Assembly (NCBI GenBank): GCA_018712865.1
Contig: DVGH01000041.1
Location: 21,516-53,515, forward strand
DNA length: 32,000 nt
Direction of reading: 5' to 3'
Source: Candidatus Scatovicinus merdipullorum
GTDB taxonomy: Bacteria > Bacillota > Clostridia > Oscillospirales > Acutalibacteraceae
In this document: in pieces, positions 4,764 through 32,000 of the stretch
Layout of the letters: every line of letters starts with the position of its first letter
How positions within the stretch are numbered: position 1 is the first letter of the stretch
Made by a program: the position numbers and the translations under genes
The notes under the pieces: generated by a model
Database searches by the model: none
The model's input: only the letters and a program-made list of their open reading frames with translations
Told to the model about the DNA's origin: nothing

Positions 4764-5270
4764 TCAAATCCAACCCGGTGGATTATCAGACTCTTTTTTT
4801 TGGCGCAATTCTTTAAAAAAGTTACGCAAAACAGCGCTACACTCTGTCTGTAATACTCCGCCGGTCAACTTTGGCTTATGATTGTACGGCAGATCAAACA
4901 AGTTAACAACAGAACCGCAGGATCCGGCTTTTTTATCATACGCACCAAATACCACGCGTTCTAAGCGGGCGTTGATAATAGCGCCTGCACACATAGGACA
5001 TGGCTCAAGCGTTATATAAATCGTACATTGCCACAGCCGCCAGCCGCCAAGTATCCGGCATGCCTGCGCAATCGCCTCAAGCTCTGCATGGCACAGCGCG
5101 TTTTTTACCTGTTCGCGACGGTTATACCCACGCGAGAGGATCTGCCCGTCCTTTACGATTACAGCACCTACCGGCACTTCGCCATTTTCGGCAGAATGTT
5201 CGGCGCAACGCAAAGCTTCGCGCATAAATAAGATATCTTCTTGCTGTGGTTGTGTTACATAAGCATCCAA
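4764..5270 (-). CDS. tadA: tRNA adenosine(34) deaminase
   Basis: CDA zinc motifs HAELEAI and PCPMCAGA are present, with GEVPVGAVIV near the N-terminus. TTG 5270 is preceded by AGAGGT. ATG 5225 is an alternative start, but the equivalent Met is internal in E. coli TadA. Confidence 0.92.
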   Translation of the reverse strand: MDAYVTQPQQEDILFMREALRCAEHSAENGEVPVGAVIVKDGQILSRGYNRREQVKNALCHAELEAIAQACRILGGWRLWQCTIYITLEPCPMCAGAIINARLERVVFGAYDKKAGSCGSVVNLFDLPYNHKPKLTGGVLQTECSAVLRNFFKELRQKKESDNPPGWI

Positions 5271-6298
5271 AACGATATTACCTCTAATAAAATCAATATA
5301 CTTAAAACAATCATACCGGGGGAAAGGAAAAAGCAGCGTATCTTTTCACGGAAAGTCAAAATATGATTCGGCTTCTTAAAAGTAAGCAAAGTATGGTCTT
5401 TTTTTGCGACCAGTGCAATCCCAAGAATACCCAACAGAAAAAACAGACCCATAAAACCTGCGTAATAGATTTCTGCAACGGTTTGTCCAAACTGCGAATT
5501 TATAATATCGCCCAGCACGGAAAACAAATTATTCATAAAATGCAGCAACATTGCCGGGATTATGGATCCGCTGTATACAGTGATGTAAGCGAAAACCAGG
5601 CCTCCAATGAATGCAAACGGGATCTGAATCAGATTACCGTGTATCAGTCCGAAAATAATCGAGGATGTTAAAACAGCAAAGCCGTCGCCATAGCTTCGTA
5701 AAGCGCCCAATAAAACACCACGGTATAGAAATTCCTCCACAAAAGCCGGCGTGACGGCAACCGCCAGAATATAAAGGATATTGGTGGCCCATTGGCCATC
5801 GAGTTTTACAGTGGATACCGCATCTAAGTTATAATGGATACCGATCATCGAAAGATTTTGCAGCATGCAGTCAACCATATAATTTGCAAACATTGCCACG
5901 GCAAGCCCCGCGGGCAAAAGCGCAGCAATACGCTTTATGCTGACAGTTTGCTGGAATGAAAAAAGATCGTCAAAACGCCGGCCGACCATGGCACGCAGAA
6001 TCAAAGCAGTTGTAAACATTCCCACAACCGACACAATTCCCGAAAGTGTATAGTACACATCTGGCGGGAAAGTAGAAGCTATGTCCATCTGGCCATAATT
6101 GATGGCACCGAAAATTACTGTAATGAAAATAAGAAAGGTCGTTATCAGGTTAAAAATAACAAGAAGAATGCATTGCGAAATTCCCGTTTTATTTGCAAGC
6201 GAGCGAAGCCTTCTTTTTTCGGTATCTTTTTTATAATCTTTATGATAGAAATAAAGCCAATCTGCGCCTTGTGTAAAGCCCTGCGGCGTCCACTGCAT
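5255..6298 (-). CDS. CPBP (CAAX/Abi) family intramembrane glutamic endopeptidase
   Basis: The protein is multi-TM with motifs EEFLYRG, FGLIHG and HFMNN. I prefer ATG 6298 over the ORF-track TTG 6391 because a near-consensus promoter (6353-6381) lies between the two. Confidence 0.8.
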   Translation of the reverse strand: MQWTPQGFTQGADWLYFYHKDYKKDTEKRRLRSLANKTGISQCILLVIFNLITTFLIFITVIFGAINYGQMDIASTFPPDVYYTLSGIVSVVGMFTTALILRAMVGRRFDDLFSFQQTVSIKRIAALLPAGLAVAMFANYMVDCMLQNLSMIGIHYNLDAVSTVKLDGQWATNILYILAVAVTPAFVEEFLYRGVLLGALRSYGDGFAVLTSSIIFGLIHGNLIQIPFAFIGGLVFAYITVYSGSIIPAMLLHFMNNLFSVLGDIINSQFGQTVAEIYYAGFMGLFFLLGILGIALVAKKDHTLLTFKKPNHILTFREKIRCFFLSPGMIVLSILILLEVISFWMLM

Positions 6299-6352
6299 AG
6301 AATCACATCCAACGTTTTTATTCAAATTTTTAATTTGATTATTTGCTTTGTT

Positions 6353-6381
6353 ATTATAGCATTCCTTTTTTTTGATTACAA
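6353..6381 (-). promoter_or_regulatory. sigma-A type promoter for the CPBP-tadA operon
   Basis: The minus strand reads TTGTAA (6381-6376), a 17-nt spacer ending in TGC, then TATAAT (6358-6353). Confidence 0.55.
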
Positions 6382-6462
6382 TAAAAACCAATAATTTATA
6401 AAAACAAAGAGAACTTCTTCGCGAAAAAAGTTTTTAAAGTTGTATAAATACACGGCTTTTGC

Positions 6463-6490
6463 TTGATTATATACAAAAATATGCTATAAT
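6463..6490 (+). promoter_or_regulatory. sigma-A type promoter upstream of nusB
   Basis: TTGATT (6463-6468), a 16-nt spacer, then TGC-TATAAT (extended -10, 6482-6490), 35 nt before the nusB ATG. Confidence 0.5.
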
Positions 6491-6524
6491 TATTAGATAA
6501 ACAAAAGGTTGGGATGGATAAAAA

Positions 6525-10227: not shown

Positions 10228-12102
10228 ATGGCAGATTTTCAATATCTGGATAAAATCCGTACGCCATCGGACCTCCGTTTTCTTTCCATTTCCGAACTGA
10301 ATGTTCTTTGTTCTGAAATACGCCGGACAATTGTAGAAACCGTTTCCAAAAACGGCGGTCATCTGGCTTCAAACCTGGGTGTGGTAGAATTAACGGTTGC
10401 CCTTTTAAAAATGTTTCCGGATGTTCAAGACAAGATCGTCTGGGACGTTGGGCATCAAAGCTATACGCATAAAATTCTTACCGGCAGATTTCAAGAGATC
10501 GGAACAATTCGAACGGAAGGAGGGCTTTCGGGCTTTCCGAAAAGAACAGAAAGCCCCTATGATGCGTTCAACGCGGGACATAGCAGTACATCTATTTCTG
10601 CTGCATATGGTATTGCAAGAGCTAAGGCGCTTAAAGGAGAAGATGGATATACCATTGCAGTCATCGGCGATGGTGCTTTGACGGGCGGGCTGGCTTTTGA
10701 GGGCTTAAACAATGCCGGACGATTTAAGAAGAATTTTATAGTCGTATTAAACGACAATAAAATGTCTATTTCAAGAAATGTAGGATCTGTAGCGCGCTAT
10801 TTATCAGGGATCCGTATAAAACCGGCATATTTGCGGGTGAAAACAAAGGTGGAAAAGGCGCTGCTTCATACGCCCGTGGTTGGTAATCCGCTGCGGCGTT
10901 TTCTGAAACGGTCCAAGTCGAGCGTGCGCAAAATTGTATATAAAGATACGCTGTTTGACGACATGGGCTTTACCTATTACGGGCCGGTGGAGGGGCACAG
11001 CCTGCTGGAGTTGGAAAATGCCTTTAATGCGGCAAAACATGTAAACGGCCCGGTTTTGGTGCATGTGGTAACAACAAAAGGAAAAGGCTATCAATATGCA
11101 GAAAACGACCCCAAAAACTTTCATGGGATTTCAAGCTTTGATGTAGAAACCGGGGAGCCCATTACCTCAAAAATTGGATTTTCAGATGTATTTGGTGAAA
11201 AGCTTTGTGAAATGGCGCAGGATGATAAGAGAATCTGCGCTGTAACGGCAGCTATGAAATCCGGAACGGGGCTTAACAGTTTTGCAAGGCTTTATAAGGA
11301 TCGCTTTTTTGACGTTGGCATTGCAGAAGAGCATGCAGTGACTTTCAGCGGTGGGCTTGCCGCGGGCGGCATGCTGCCGGTGTTTGCCGTCTATTCTACT
11401 TTTCTGCAAAGAAGTGTGGATCAGATTATCCATGACGTAGCGACGCAAAAGCTGCATATGATTCTTGCTATTGACAGGGCGGGGATTGTCGGTGAAGACG
11501 GCGAAACACACCAGGGCGTTTTTGACGTGGCGCTTTTAAACCCCATACCGAATGTGGAAATATACAGCCCTTGCTATTTTGAAGAACTACGCCGCGATTT
11601 GCAGACAGCGGCGTATTCCAACAGCGGGGTGATTGCCGTGCGCTATCCCAAAGGCGGAGAACTCTATCGCCCAGCCAATTTTTTGCCGGGAAAAAAGACG
11701 TTTGATTTTTATGGTGGAATGTCTGCACAGGTGCTTTTGGTTACATATGGCAGGTTGTTCAGCTATGCTTGTATTGCAAAGGAAACGCTTTATAAAAGCG
11801 GTGTAGACATCACTATATTAAAGTTAAACAGAATTAAACCCATTCCAAAAGAGGCAATTTTGGAATCGCTGCATTTCAAGCATATTTTTTTCTTTGAAGA
11901 AGGGATGGCGGCGGGCGGTACAGGGGAGCATTTTATGTATGAGCTTTCCCGGCATTGTTGGAACGGGCATTATACGCTTACAGCCATTGATAACCGCTAT
12001 GTACAGCATGCGCCGACAGCCGTTTCTTTGCATGCGCTGCACTTGGACGACGAAGGTATGGTTCACGTTGTTGCAAAAGGAATACAGGAGGACATAAATT
12101 AA
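10228..12102 (+). CDS. dxs: 1-deoxy-D-xylulose-5-phosphate synthase
   Basis: 624 aa with GGHLASNLG, DVGHQSY and the ThDP motif GDGALTGG...NDN, plus the transketolase-like middle and C-terminal domains. Confidence 0.96.
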   Translation: MADFQYLDKIRTPSDLRFLSISELNVLCSEIRRTIVETVSKNGGHLASNLGVVELTVALLKMFPDVQDKIVWDVGHQSYTHKILTGRFQEIGTIRTEGGLSGFPKRTESPYDAFNAGHSSTSISAAYGIARAKALKGEDGYTIAVIGDGALTGGLAFEGLNNAGRFKKNFIVVLNDNKMSISRNVGSVARYLSGIRIKPAYLRVKTKVEKALLHTPVVGNPLRRFLKRSKSSVRKIVYKDTLFDDMGFTYYGPVEGHSLLELENAFNAAKHVNGPVLVHVVTTKGKGYQYAENDPKNFHGISSFDVETGEPITSKIGFSDVFGEKLCEMAQDDKRICAVTAAMKSGTGLNSFARLYKDRFFDVGIAEEHAVTFSGGLAAGGMLPVFAVYSTFLQRSVDQIIHDVATQKLHMILAIDRAGIVGEDGETHQGVFDVALLNPIPNVEIYSPCYFEELRRDLQTAAYSNSGVIAVRYPKGGELYRPANFLPGKKTFDFYGGMSAQVLLVTYGRLFSYACIAKETLYKSGVDITILKLNRIKPIPKEAILESLHFKHIFFFEEGMAAGGTGEHFMYELSRHCWNGHYTLTAIDNRYVQHAPTAVSLHALHLDDEGMVHVVAKGIQEDIN

Positions 12103-28978: not shown

Positions 28979-29416
28979 ATGCAGCTTGAAGTCGGAAATA
29001 TTTTAGAAGGAAAAGTTACAGGAATCACAAATTTTGGCGCCTTTATAGATTTATCTGACGGTCTGACCGGCATGGTACATATTTCTGAAGTAGCGCCTAC
29101 TTATGTAAGCCAGATTCGTGACCATTTAAAAATTGGGCAGGAGGTCAAAGTGCGGGTCCTGTCTATCGGCGAAGATGGAAAGATCAGTTTGTCTATAAAA
29201 AAAGCAATGGAAAAACCGCGCACTGCTGAAAGAAGGCGTACGGCTTCGTCTGCGCCGCCTGTTAAAGGCCCTGGCGACTTTGAATGGCATAGTAAATTAA
29301 GCGAGCCTGCCAGCTTTGAAGATATGATGCTGCGCTTTAAGCAATCCAGTGACGAAAAGATGTCTGCGTTAAAAAGAGGGGAAAATACGCCGCGCAGACG
29401 TAAACCGCAAAAATAA
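28979..29416 (+). CDS. S1 RNA-binding domain protein (YabR-like)
   Basis: S1 fold string G.ILEGKVTGITNFGAFIDL..G.TGMVHISE...YV......L..GQEV.V.VL. RBS AAGGAGGA. Confidence 0.9.
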   Translation: MQLEVGNILEGKVTGITNFGAFIDLSDGLTGMVHISEVAPTYVSQIRDHLKIGQEVKVRVLSIGEDGKISLSIKKAMEKPRTAERRRTASSAPPVKGPGDFEWHSKLSEPASFEDMMLRFKQSSDEKMSALKRGENTPRRRKPQK

Positions 29417-29425
29417 ATGCTTTAA

Positions 29426-29451
29426 CCGACGCCTGTCAGGCGTCGGTTTTT
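29426..29451 (+). terminator. Rho-independent terminator after the S1 gene (may also serve the convergent HTH gene)
   Basis: Stem of 9 bp, CCGACGCCT with AGGCGTCGG, and a 3-nt loop, followed by T5 (29447-29451). Confidence 0.88.
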
Positions 29452-29509
29452 GTTGTATAAAGAAAACCACTTCGCCGGAAAAATCGGAATGCTCCCACGA
29501 AGGCTCATT

Positions 29510-29683
29510 TCATGCTATATTATATTTTTCAGCTATTGCCTGTGATATTTCTTTGCTTGGGGCGGATTTTCCGCTTTCCCAATCCGTTATATCATGCATC
29601 GCAACGCCCAAATATTCGGCCAATCTTTGCCGCAGCTCGGGCTGCGATTTTGTCAGGATTAATATTGCATCTCTTATATTCAT
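29510..29683 (-). CDS. Small XRE/Cro-type helix-turn-helix protein (57 aa)
   Basis: LAEYLGVAMHDITDWESGKSAPS resembles the HTH_3 pattern (LA..LGVS...IS.WE.GK..P). ATG 29683 is preferred over the TTG at 29698. The RBS is weak. Confidence 0.6.
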   Translation of the reverse strand: MNIRDAILILTKSQPELRQRLAEYLGVAMHDITDWESGKSAPSKEISQAIAEKYNIA

Positions 29684-29885
29684 ACACTTGCACCACAATT
29701 TTTTATTAAAATATAAATCAAAAATGACGCATGGTCGAGCCGGTTAAGCTTATTTTCTGCGTAAAATAGATTTAAAGTAAAATATAATAAGCGAATGATT
29801 TATTTATCCTATTAATATAACATTTAAAAGACTTAAAATAAAAATATTTTATAATTATAATTAGATAATACAGCGGCTAATAATG

Positions 29886-29914
29886 TTGACTTGGGGTTTT
29901 ATATAAAGTAAAAT
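29886..29914 (+). promoter_or_regulatory. Near-consensus sigma-A promoter for the MetRS-like gene
   Basis: TTGACT (29886-29891), a 17-nt spacer, then TAAAAT (29909-29914). It predicts a leader of about 95 nt. Confidence 0.6.
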
Positions 29915-30014
29915 AGGTATAGCAATTTTTGCCTATGCTTTGATAAAAGCGGAATTTTGCTTATATGAATGCAGGTTGGAAGGAGATCGGCTGGATTGGT
30001 CGGAATGTGTAAAT

Positions 30015-32000
30015 ATGACAGACAGTAAAAATAACGACATAAATATTGAGAAGCGCCCATCGTTTCCGAAGAGGGCAATAGTAACGGCCGGCATGCCTTA
30101 TGGGAATAAGGAGCTGCATTTCGGACATGTCGGCGGCGTGTTTATTCCGGCGGACATGATGGCAAGATTTCTGCGCGACAGGATAGGAAGCGAAAATGTT
30201 CTTTTTATTTCCGGCACCGACTGTTATGGCTCCACTATTGAAGAGGGGTTTGAAAAGCAGAAAGAAAACGGCGGATATACTGATATTCTTGAATATATAA
30301 AATCCAATCATGAAAAGCAGAAGTCGACGCTGGAGAAATTTTATATAAGCCTTGATTTGTTTGCAGCGTCGGCGTTCGGCGAGGCGGGCGAGATACACAA
30401 AAAGGTTTCCTGCGATATTTTTGAAAAATTTTATACTTCCGGTGCGCTTAAACTTGACAATGCGTATCAGTTCTATGATGAAGAGGCCGGCGCCTTTTTA
30501 AACGGCCGGCAGGTAGTGGGGCGCTGCCCTATAAGCGGCTGCAAGTCGGAGGCGGCGTACGCCAACGAATGCGCGCTTGGGCATCAGTATATGGAGCAGG
30601 GCCTCATAAACCCCATAAGCACTCTTACGGGAAAACGTCCGGTGCTAAAACCCACGCAGAACTGGTACATTGATATGGAAAAATATCGCGATGCTCTCAT
30701 AAAACGTCAGGACGAGCTACGCAAAAGAGACAATGTAAGGGAAAACCTTATAAGGGTGACGGACGAGTTTTACCGCGACCCGACTATATATGTAAAACGT
30801 GAGTTTATGCCACAGGCGCAGACTCTTTCAGATATGCCGGAATATACGGTAACAGACGACGAAAAGAAGCCGTCGGTCACACTGACTTTTTCGTGTCTGG
30901 CCGACCGAGAGAAAGCGTGTGAAATACTCAATAAAAACGACATACGCTATCGTACCGGCAAGACCATTGTGCCCTTTAGAATATCCGGCAACGGCGGCTG
31001 GGGCATAGCAGTGCCGGAAAAGGACGGCGTAAATGGGCGCACTTTCTGGGTGTGGCCGGAGTCTCTGTGGGCGCCGATATCATTTACAAAAGCGGCGCTT
31101 AAGATGCGCGGCTGCGATGATGACGAATGGCTTAAGTGGTGGACGGATGACGGCGCGGAAATATATCAATTTATAGGTGAGGATAATATATATTTTTACG
31201 GTATAGCCGAAACGGCAATGTTCATGGCGGCGTCAAAGCAGATGGAAAAAGGGTTGCGTCTGCCGAATATAATACCAAACCGGCATGTTTTCTTTATGGG
31301 AAACAAGGCCAGCAGCAGCGGCAAAATAAAGCCGCCTATGGCTGACAGATTGCTGGACTATTATACGCCTGAGCAGATGCGCATGCACTTTTTGGGAATG
31401 GCACTTTCCACTAAAAGCGTAAGCTTCAGTCCGCGCGCGTTTGCGCCGGAGGATGCAAAGCCGCAGGACAAATTTGACCCCGCGCTTAAAGAGGGAAGTC
31501 TGCTTACAAATGTATTTAACAGACTTGTGCGCTCCGGCTTTTACTCGCTGCAGAAGTATTTTGGCGGAATATTGCCGTATGGCGAGGTAAGCGCAGAGGT
31601 AAAGGAAAAGTGCGATAAACTTATACTAAAATACGAAGAGTGCATGTATAAATATGAGTTTAATGCTGTTATAGAAGAGCTTGACCTTTTTGTACGCGAC
31701 TGCAATAAGCGCTGGTCGGCAATAAGCCGCGAGGCTAAGGACGACGCGGAAGCTATGGGCCGGCTGCTTATCGATACTTTCCATGAAATACGTGTGCTGA
31801 CTACGCTTTATCATCCGATAGCGCCGGCGGGCTGTGAGATGATAAGGAAATATCTGCGTGTGCCGGAAAGCGTGTGGAACTGGGACAATATATTCGAGGA
31901 GATATATTTCTTCTTTGACAATGTGGATAATCATGAAATGAAGTTTTTAGAGCCGAGAATAGACTTTTTCGCTCCGCACGAAAGCCAAATTAAAAAATAG
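30015..32000 (+). CDS. Divergent class I aminoacyl-tRNA synthetase, MetRS-like paralogue (661 aa, complete; the stop is the last codon of the window)
   Basis: HIGH motif PYGNKELHFGHVGG, GTDCYG, zinc-knuckle CPISGC...ECALGH, WGIAVP, VW...APISF, and a C-terminal helical domain. The KMSKS position reads KASSS. The start is ambiguous among ATG 30015, CTG 29991 and TTG 29940. Confidence 0.8.
   Translation: MTDSKNNDINIEKRPSFPKRAIVTAGMPYGNKELHFGHVGGVFIPADMMARFLRDRIGSENVLFISGTDCYGSTIEEGFEKQKENGGYTDILEYIKSNHEKQKSTLEKFYISLDLFAASAFGEAGEIHKKVSCDIFEKFYTSGALKLDNAYQFYDEEAGAFLNGRQVVGRCPISGCKSEAAYANECALGHQYMEQGLINPISTLTGKRPVLKPTQNWYIDMEKYRDALIKRQDELRKRDNVRENLIRVTDEFYRDPTIYVKREFMPQAQTLSDMPEYTVTDDEKKPSVTLTFSCLADREKACEILNKNDIRYRTGKTIVPFRISGNGGWGIAVPEKDGVNGRTFWVWPESLWAPISFTKAALKMRGCDDDEWLKWWTDDGAEIYQFIGEDNIYFYGIAETAMFMAASKQMEKGLRLPNIIPNRHVFFMGNKASSSGKIKPPMADRLLDYYTPEQMRMHFLGMALSTKSVSFSPRAFAPEDAKPQDKFDPALKEGSLLTNVFNRLVRSGFYSLQKYFGGILPYGEVSAEVKEKCDKLILKYEECMYKYEFNAVIEELDLFVRDCNKRWSAISREAKDDAEAMGRLLIDTFHEIRVLTTLYHPIAPAGCEMIRKYLRVPESVWNWDNIFEEIYFFFDNVDNHEMKFLEPRIDFFAPHESQIKK

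Follow-up and report, generated by a model that had tools for sequence, protein, structure and literature searches.

The question raised by this locus is whether the DNA that lies behind yabR in Candidatus Scatovicinus merdipullorum is native to its host genome and, if not, what it carries. The stretch analysed here (contig DVGH01000041.1, positions 21,516 to 53,515; 32,000 nucleotides in full, hereafter the window) reaches its final host core gene with yabR, an S1-domain gene at 28979–29416 on the plus strand (Pfam S1, 1.4e-19; NCBIfam PRK08582; ATA in 2/9 isoleucine codons), and closes with a gene for a methionyl-tRNA synthetase (MetRS)-like class I synthetase paralogue of 661 residues (30015–32000, plus strand; Pfam tRNA-synt_1g, 202 bits). 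It is well supported that positions 29452–32000, together with about 260 bp past the window end, form a small horizontally acquired patch between yabR and hpf. Taken as a whole, the best explanation is a foreign patch at the yabR–hpf junction whose cargo is not a MetRS and has a role linked to tRNAGln, a reading to which we assign a probability of about 0.8. A preliminary description of this DNA had proposed a horizontal acquisition at yabR; its start of the transfer behind the yabR terminator stands, whereas the large island, the spoIIE neighbour and the XRE regulator that it also invoked have to be dropped or revised. The names borne by the closest YabR homologues put the host, a human-gut species, in Acutalibacteraceae (Oscillospirales).

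The block differs from its surroundings in codon choice. Codons were counted in the 34 open reading frames (ORFs) of the window, 32 of which remain once the MetRS-like gene and a small helix-turn-helix (HTH) ORF beside it are set aside. The MetRS-like gene writes isoleucine as ATA 34 times, as ATT nine times and as ATC once (ATA 34/44, 77%), close to the roughly three quarters (about 32 of 42) given earlier, and the HTH ORF (29510–29698, minus strand) uses ATA for 6 of its 7 isoleucines, the same count as before. Across the 32 other ORFs, ATA accounts for 0 to 47% per ORF and for 150/670 (22%) when pooled, with 8/40 in dxs (10228–12102), in agreement with the view of the preliminary description that ATA is the minor isoleucine codon in dxs and other core genes; the excess in the MetRS-like gene is highly significant (Fisher p = 1.8e-13). 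Its codons for Thr (ACT), Asp (GAC), Gly (GGC), Phe and Glu are shifted as well, with p values from 7e-5 to 7e-3. The relative synonymous codon usage (RSCU) of the gene correlates with that of host genes at r = 0.56, below the leave-one-out range of 0.60–0.88 for the 17 host genes of at least 300 residues. With the genes that flank a homologue from an uncultured member of the Clostridia (L007), it correlates at 0.77, as against 0.16–0.44 for the same 17 host genes. The stretch of about 240 bp described as very poor in guanine and cytosine (GC) at 29700–29940 indeed has a GC fraction of 0.228, compared with 0.454 for the whole window. The MetRS-like gene itself is not AT-rich (GC 0.47; GC at third codon positions, GC3, 0.54, the top value in the window), so the anomaly is a codon-choice signature and not a base-composition island. 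ATA-rich core genes, named earlier as an observation that would speak for a native gene, were absent from about 45 kb of host DNA (the window plus flanks taken from other contigs), in which the sole other ATA-rich gene is an IS200 transposase described below.

The codon shift starts right after yabR. The intrinsic terminator of yabR (29424–29451, plus strand) consists of an 11-pair hairpin at 29424–29448, followed by a T-run, and marks the left border of the insert; the preliminary description had set the same start behind a terminator at 29426–29451. Strains with and without an IS200 element share identity from TTGTATAAAG at about position 29452, and the alignment with two other contigs (L001 and L006) diverges upstream of about the same position, making 29452–29509 (no strand assigned) the left junction zone in which foreign sequence begins. 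On the right, the window end coincides exactly with the stop codon of the MetRS-like gene. The protein is present on many human-gut metagenome contigs, and the gene is followed by a terminator with a perfect 16-bp stem, about 110–145 bp past the window end (L002:9224–9258), and then by the hpf promoter. Downstream lie hpf (S30AE), an RlmL/THUMP methyltransferase gene, groES, groEL, a gene for a dockerin protein and a branched-chain amino-acid ABC transporter, with host-like ATA shares of isoleucine codons (hpf 2/10, rlmL 7/24, groES 0/10, groEL 3/44). The odd block is thus made up of the HTH ORF, an AT-rich spacer and the MetRS-like gene, about 2.8 kb in total. A large island extending past the window, of whose possible left edge the preliminary description had spoken, is ruled out: core genes from hpf and rlmL through groES and groEL to the ABC transporter, all with normal codon usage, resume right after the MetRS-like gene. 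No integrase or tRNA gene was found at the insert and no mobility genes downstream of it; the preliminary description had likewise seen no integrase, tRNA or direct repeats in the window. The motif TATAAAG occurs after both the yabR terminator and the terminator of the MetRS-like gene, at chance level and too short as a target duplication.

The nearest syntenic relative (L091/L092) provides the empty site. It shares with the window a 12-gene order upstream of the junction (relA, dtd, an MBL gene, a radical SAM gene, spoVB, mazG, HU, S4, yabP, yabQ, divIC and yabR), and there yabR is followed after 114 bp by hpf, and then by rlmL, groES and groEL; the identities to this relative are 76% for YabR, 79% for Hpf and 91% for GroEL. 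The ancestral neighbour of yabR in this lineage is therefore hpf, followed by rlmL-groES-groEL, and not spoIIE, which had been expected behind yabR. A conserved yabR–XRE–MetRS-like order, raised in the preliminary description as a finding that would count against transfer, is absent: yabR and hpf adjoin in L091/L092, and neither yabR nor hpf nor groEL lies near the family gene at any of the 80 other loci that encode it (0/80), which were obtained in a scan with one genome per species. A second relative (L093) has an unrelated gene for a 583-residue LCAT/dockerin protein between yabR and hpf (L093:8594–10345), suggesting that this spot is a recurrent insertion point for foreign genes.

Within the host species the insert is fixed. 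All 10 of the 10 long same-species contigs listed carry the module (24 contigs were read), and 832 indexed blocks contain the protein. In one of the contigs (L103), an IS200-type Y1_Tnp gene also lies between the yabR terminator and the module (L103:4615–5085) and adds 718 bp. This IS200/IS605-type Y1 transposase has 156 residues, with ATA in 8/11 isoleucine codons, and also occurs at L001:7191–7661 and L006:1–75. Its insertion in some strains accounts for the divergence of the L001 and L006 junctions at about 29452; at this border the element is a polymorphic, secondary feature. Upstream of the element, L001 carries uvrB-gyrB-gyrA-secG in place of yabR; because L103 shows the element as a simple insertion, this context is probably an assembly join or a rearrangement via copies of the insertion sequence.

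The closest homologues lie elsewhere. Candidatus Timburyella stercoris from chicken (L008) has a homologue with 94% amino acid and 88.8% nucleotide identity, and its DNA homology with the window begins at about 29508, at the stop codon of the HTH ORF. The homologue of the uncultured Clostridia (L007) is 88% identical in protein and 80.6% in nucleotide sequence, with homology that sets in at about 29838 and ends precisely on the stop codon, and a third homologue (L087), located between enolase and pyruvate kinase genes, is 78% identical in protein sequence. These three make up the window clade, and the next homologues fall to 61% and then to about 50–55%. All three sit in unrelated contexts, and the HTH neighbour accompanies the gene in L007 and L008. 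The genes flanking the L007 homologue use ATA for 69% of isoleucines and have a GC3 of 0.63, and the flanks of L087 are ATA-rich too (roughly 25–77% per gene, with most larger genes above 45%), so that two of the three closest homologues lie in natively ATA-preferring surroundings. Between the window gene and its L008 and L007 homologues, the ratio of nonsynonymous to synonymous divergence (dN/dS) is about 0.06; dS is 0.45 to L008 and 1.2 to L007, and the proportion of differing synonymous sites (pS) is 0.34 against L008. Host core genes compared with their nearest relatives are saturated at synonymous sites (pS 0.62–0.82). Such strong purifying selection, together with fixation in the species, indicates that the MetRS-like gene is in use.

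Could the gene nevertheless be native, with an ATA richness that is specific to it and selected, for instance because its expression is tied to the lysidine-modified tRNAIle2(CAU)? Unmodified tRNAIle2(CAU) is a substrate of MetRS, and the connection between ATA, TilS and MetRS is established biochemistry; a native gene under special selection would also fit the strong purifying selection. However, across the 80 loci of other species the ATA share of the homologue tracks its own flanks or falls below them (0.03 vs 0.17, 0.35 vs 0.43 and 0.57 vs 0.58), which removes the idea that the family is ATA-rich for functional reasons and rules out a regulatory connection of the codon to TilS and tRNAIle2. 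The five further amino acids with shifted codons, the same bias in the adjoining, non-homologous HTH ORF and the empty site in the closest relative likewise speak against a native gene, and we consider this explanation extremely improbable.

The HTH ORF tells where the left cut fell. It encodes 62 residues of XRE type (Pfam HTH_3, 4.4e-6; 27 bits against a cut-off of 23), is left uncalled by gene callers and ends about 58 bp short of the left junction. At the same divergent position, L007 encodes a 332-residue protein that combines HTH_3 with an S-adenosylmethionine (SAM)-dependent methyltransferase domain (Methyltransf_11); the 62-residue product is 43% identical to the N-terminus of this protein and aligns with its first ~55 residues, and the counterpart in L008 is a degraded ORF of 51 residues with 62% identity to the one in the window. 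The alignment to these first residues and the degradation in L008 indicate that only a fragment of this gene came across, its broken end showing the left boundary of the transferred DNA. Rather than the XRE regulator that had been placed next to the synthetase, the ORF thus appears to be an HTH-only, N-terminal remnant of the HTH-SAM-methyltransferase gene, co-transferred with the synthetase-like gene. Under this reading, the patch would have been cut from a donor locus in which the MetRS-like gene stood back to back with the HTH-methyltransferase gene, and would have carried only the first ~60 codons of the latter, i.e., the HTH part, the shared AT-rich promoter region, and the whole of the MetRS-like gene, terminator included. 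In the donor lineage, ATA would be the main isoleucine codon, with G/C-ending codons elsewhere, a signature that the gene would have retained.

A different history has to be weighed against horizontal insertion: the module could have stood ancestrally between yabR and hpf, with a later loss in L091/L092 and a replacement in L093. The nearest relatives are distant and saturated at synonymous sites, and the module is fixed in the species, as differential loss would allow. Against it, the codon usage is donor-like and not host-like, the neighbour gene is truncated exactly at the junction, and the closest homologues are found in unrelated contexts; moreover, residence since before those splits should have ameliorated the codon signal away. 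We therefore rate differential loss as quite unlikely. The codon break, the empty site, the homologues in other contexts and the truncated neighbour converge on horizontal insertion.

Pfam finds only tRNA-synt_1g and a weak Anticodon_1 in the cargo protein, which gene callers extend to a TTG at 29940 (686 residues), and it misses the NCBIfam MetRS equivalogs by a wide margin, with 213 bits against a cut-off of 587 (NF001100) and 163 against 336 (TIGR00398). An AlphaFold2 (AF2) model (mean predicted local distance difference test, pLDDT, 89; predicted template modelling score, pTM, 0.89) has as its best match in the PDB the MetRS of P. abyssi (1rqg; Foldseek TM 0.72–0.78, 24% identity). Among more than 5,000 scoring database proteins, the best 120 are 51–78% identical, and their naming is inconsistent, with "class I tRNA ligase family protein" in some records and MetRS in others; the mean column identity of a 28-sequence family alignment is 63%. 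The HIGH motif reads HFGH at residues 35–38 (30117–30128), is invariant in the 28 members and aligns with H21 and H24 of E. coli MetRS. The KMSKS equivalent, KASSS at residues 431–435 (31305–31319), aligns with KFSTS of P. abyssi MetRS, and its K431, S433, S434 and S435 are invariant in the family alignment. Residues 257–314 (30783–30956) constitute a family-specific insertion, seen as a profile gap between positions 256 and 322; these 58 residues are absent from the P. abyssi and E. coli enzymes in the profile alignment and are predicted from the model to fold as beta-alpha-beta-beta-alpha-beta.

The amino acid pocket is altered throughout the family. In E. coli numbering, aligned with E. coli and canonical clostridial MetRS, the invariant changes are L13M, H54Y, Y260F, H301Y and W305E, the last two, which bring polar residues into the methionine pocket, corresponding to Tyr395 and Glu399 of the window protein (31197–31211; 28/28 members), while HIGH, Asp52, Tyr15 and Trp253 are kept and the helical anticodon-binding domain persists with strong conservation. 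His301 is retained in E. coli MetRS and in a canonical MetRS encoded on a contig (L085) that also carries a family member (L085:1290–3248), the two lying 7 kb apart, with an AUG-type T-box (10538–10829) ahead of the canonical gene. The presence of both on one contig makes the family a paralogue and not the housekeeping MetRS, and rules out that it serves as the sole MetRS of these organisms. We infer that the cargo is not a methionyl-tRNA synthetase; its family extends across the Clostridia and occurs alongside canonical MetRS.

T-box leaders hint at the tRNA with which the family may work. Rfam places T-boxes directly upstream of homologues in L. phytofermentans, C. sartagoforme, Anaerosporobacter faecicola and Clostridium sp. 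HCS.1, and a profile built from these four leaders raised the total of T-box-bearing family loci to 27, about a third. The specifier is CAA in 20 of the 27 and CAG in the remaining 7, i.e., a glutamine codon in every one; the specifier loops read GAA-A-CAA-G, GAA-G-CAA-G, GAA-A-CAG-G, GAA-CAG-G and GAA-CAG-U, and CAA/CAG is the only frame that encodes one amino acid throughout, which is why the specifier is read as glutamine. The frame is calibrated by GAA-C-AUG-G ahead of the canonical MetRS gene of L085, GAA-G-GUA-G ahead of a ValRS gene (L028) and CUC-G ahead of leuA (L080). Specifiers read as ACA (Thr) or AAG (Lys) are excluded by the GCAAG, ACAGG and CAGG variants together with these Met, Val and Leu T-boxes. 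Where the T-box is present, transcription thus appears to be set by the charging state of tRNAGln.

These leaders bear directly on the possibility that the cargo is an acquired second MetRS that confers resistance to a MetRS inhibitor, like S. pneumoniae MetRS2 or the IleRS2 of mupirocin resistance. Resistance through acquired aminoacyl-tRNA synthetase (aaRS) duplicates has good documentation (PMC5388404). The gene is indeed horizontally acquired, and at least one genome (L085) has both a family member and a canonical MetRS. However, the T-boxes specify Gln in 27/27 cases and Met in none, the AUG T-box on the L085 contig belongs to the canonical MetRS, His301 is replaced by Tyr in all members, the scores stay far under every MetRS equivalog cut-off and no biosynthetic cluster is found nearby. 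A resistance MetRS is accordingly very unlikely.

Upstream of the window copy, neither Rfam (at the gathering threshold and at E up to 1) nor the nhmmer T-box profile finds a T-box or other known leader, and none is found in the window clade (L007, L008 and L087). Expression in this clade may instead start from a sigma-70-like promoter, predicted as TTGACT-17-TAAAAT at 29886–29914 on the plus strand. The site lies in the AT-rich divergent intergenic region (29699–29940; no strand assigned), which also holds a promoter-like site on the minus strand, TCGACC-17-TATATT at 29738–29710; from about 29838 onward the sequence is about 80% identical to L007. A Shine-Dalgarno-like GGAG, a conserved hairpin and the ATG start follow (29982–30017, plus strand). 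The sole such GGAG is about 30 nucleotides from the ATG, and the hairpin between them, which would shorten the effective spacing, is kept in L007 and L008, where UCGGCU/GGUCGG of the window is replaced by CCGGCC/GGCCGG through paired changes. The ATG at 30015 agrees with the family N-termini and with the ORF start in L007.

Gene neighbourhoods give a second hint of glutamine. In four lineages, a gltX gene for a divergent and longer glutamyl-tRNA synthetase (GluRS) lies immediately upstream of the family gene on the same strand (L011:7973–9781, L053:7018–8652, L076:269–1915 and L086:2868–4505), with products of 545–603 residues that score 299–310 bits against a cut-off of 290; gltX2 and the MetRS-like gene look like an operon. 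An mnmA-like gene for a tRNA 2-thiouridylase follows the family gene after 66–67 bp in related Ruminiclostridium/Oscillospiraceae contigs (L035:7049–8113, L041:7880–8944); the mnmA product modifies U34 of tRNAGln, tRNAGlu and tRNALys. Among possible conserved operon partners, only gltX (four cases, immediate) and mnmA (three, at closely related loci) stand out; the other neighbours are mostly variable (GGDEF, methyltransferases, LacI-type).

From these leaders and neighbours, some tRNAGln-linked role of the family is likely. In its most specific form, which we hold only tentatively, a MetRS-derived class Ia family would charge tRNAGln and so constitute a third, independent route to Gln-tRNAGln next to class Ib GlnRS and the GluRS/GatCAB pathway, with the window copy as a transferred T-box-less allele; direct glutaminylation of tRNAGln by the family, which is the simplest reading, falls slightly short of an even chance when taken alone. 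A MetRS-fold enzyme with adenylation motifs and an anticodon-binding domain would then supply Gln-tRNAGln. The side chains of methionine and glutamine are near in size; Tyr and Glu in place of His301 and Trp305 could offer hydrogen-bonding partners for an amide, and glutamate would fit poorly beside a pocket carboxylate. As a possible variant, the enzyme might act with the co-encoded divergent GluRS on Glu-tRNAGln.

A glutamine-supply reaction that needs no tRNA is also possible. The cargo would then be an amino-acid ligase of the kind found in hydrazine synthetases, or an AsnA-like amide synthetase making free glutamine. Activation of Glu or Gly in the absence of tRNA is known for some MetRS-like scaffolds (PyrN, Spb40 and Tri28), PDB entry 9l8v is among the structural matches, and a T-box for Gln fits a glutamine-supply enzyme equally. 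This view is hard to square with the helical anticodon-binding domain, which is retained and strongly conserved, and with genes that stand alone like those of housekeeping synthetases or share an apparent operon with gltX in four lineages. Neither a cupin domain or partner nor an N-hydroxylase or cluster context accompanies the gene: no cupin occurs in the cargo protein or in 144 neighbouring ORFs, and the contexts are housekeeping genes. A tRNA-independent enzyme is thus unlikely, although less so than the alternatives considered above.

Several observations weigh against a foreign patch whose cargo serves tRNAGln. With regard to the transfer, the nearest relative with the empty site is distant (YabR 76%, GroEL 91%), so that ancestral presence followed by loss is possible, and the codon comparison covers no more than about 45 kb of host sequence. 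If L008, L007 or L087 is a close relative of the host, the history could be partly vertical. A dS of 0.45 to the nearest homologue means that the transfer is not recent and that the true donor is unsampled, and no convincing flanking direct repeats, target-site duplications or terminal repeats were found that would indicate a mechanism of insertion. As for the function, two thirds of the family loci, including the window copy, have no T-box, and Asn391 and Arg395, which recognize the anticodon in MetRS, are seemingly kept, which is unexpected for a switch to the anticodons UUG and CUG. The idea that the family substitutes for a missing GlnRS is weakened by a Roseburia contig on which a canonical GlnRS gene lies 6 kb downstream of a family member (L057:17866–19545; 703 bits for TIGR00440).

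Elsewhere in the window, the region 4764–6500 holds the sole two minus-strand genes besides the HTH ORF of the block (4764–5270 and 5255–6391). GC falls to 0.32 at 6001–6500, and the 378-residue gene there has a GC of 0.40; the region may be a further atypical patch or a divergent promoter region.

The main interest of the locus lies in the apparent link of the cargo family to tRNAGln, as suggested by its leaders and neighbours, rather than in the transfer itself. Synthetase genes move often between genomes, and the islet is an ordinary transfer, though a clean and small one in which both borders and the empty site can be seen, and whose cargo family seems to be undescribed. If the enzyme makes Gln-tRNAGln, both the catalogue of aaRS families and the accepted history of glutamine decoding in bacteria would need an addition; the MetRS annotations of these proteins would then be wrong, and this paralogue would need to be considered whenever the activity of MetRS-targeted drugs such as CRS3123 across gut Clostridia is interpreted. 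A search of full-text papers other than subscription-only ones gave no account of MetRS-like proteins controlled by a T-box for Gln, and the 2024 AARS Online catalogue lists for glutamine only GlnRS, GluGlnRS and GlxRS, with no MetRS-derived family.

A comparison with known systems places the family close to, yet apart from, each of them. With canonical MetRS (MetG/MetS; 1rqg) it shares the fold, a Rossmann core with HIGH, a KMSKS-type loop, one zinc knuckle in the connective peptide (CP) domain, the alpha-amino-binding Asp52, Tyr15 and Trp253, and the helical anticodon-binding domain; it differs in an identity of only 17–24%, in scores below the cut-offs, in the 58-residue insertion, in the pocket changes and in a T-box for Gln and not Met. 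Acquired aaRS duplicates such as S. pneumoniae MetRS2 and IleRS2/MupA likewise show foreign codon usage, a single-gene patch and purifying selection, whereas they are isofunctional and give inhibitor resistance; the present family apparently serves another substrate or tRNA and has no inhibitor cluster. The cupin/MetRS-like hydrazine synthetases (PyrN, Spb40, Tri28; 9l8v) offer a structural match and a MetRS scaffold re-tuned at the same His301 position, where, in the MetRS-like domain of PyrN, Arg425 binds the gamma-carboxylate of glutamate. The cargo family differs from them in lacking a cupin and a natural-product cluster and in having a T-box leader, a Clostridia-wide distribution, a stand-alone architecture and an anticodon-binding domain. 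Finally, the family resembles the class Ib GlnRS and the non-discriminating GluRS (ND-GluRS)/GluRS2 with GatCAB in that its T-box senses tRNAGln (CAA/CAG) and in that gltX adjoins it in four lineages. However, it is built from Pfam tRNA-synt_1g and Anticodon_1 and not from tRNA-synt_1c and a beta-barrel anticodon-binding domain, and it has no sequence relationship with GlnRS or GluRS, and a canonical GlnRS can coexist with it, as on the Roseburia contig.

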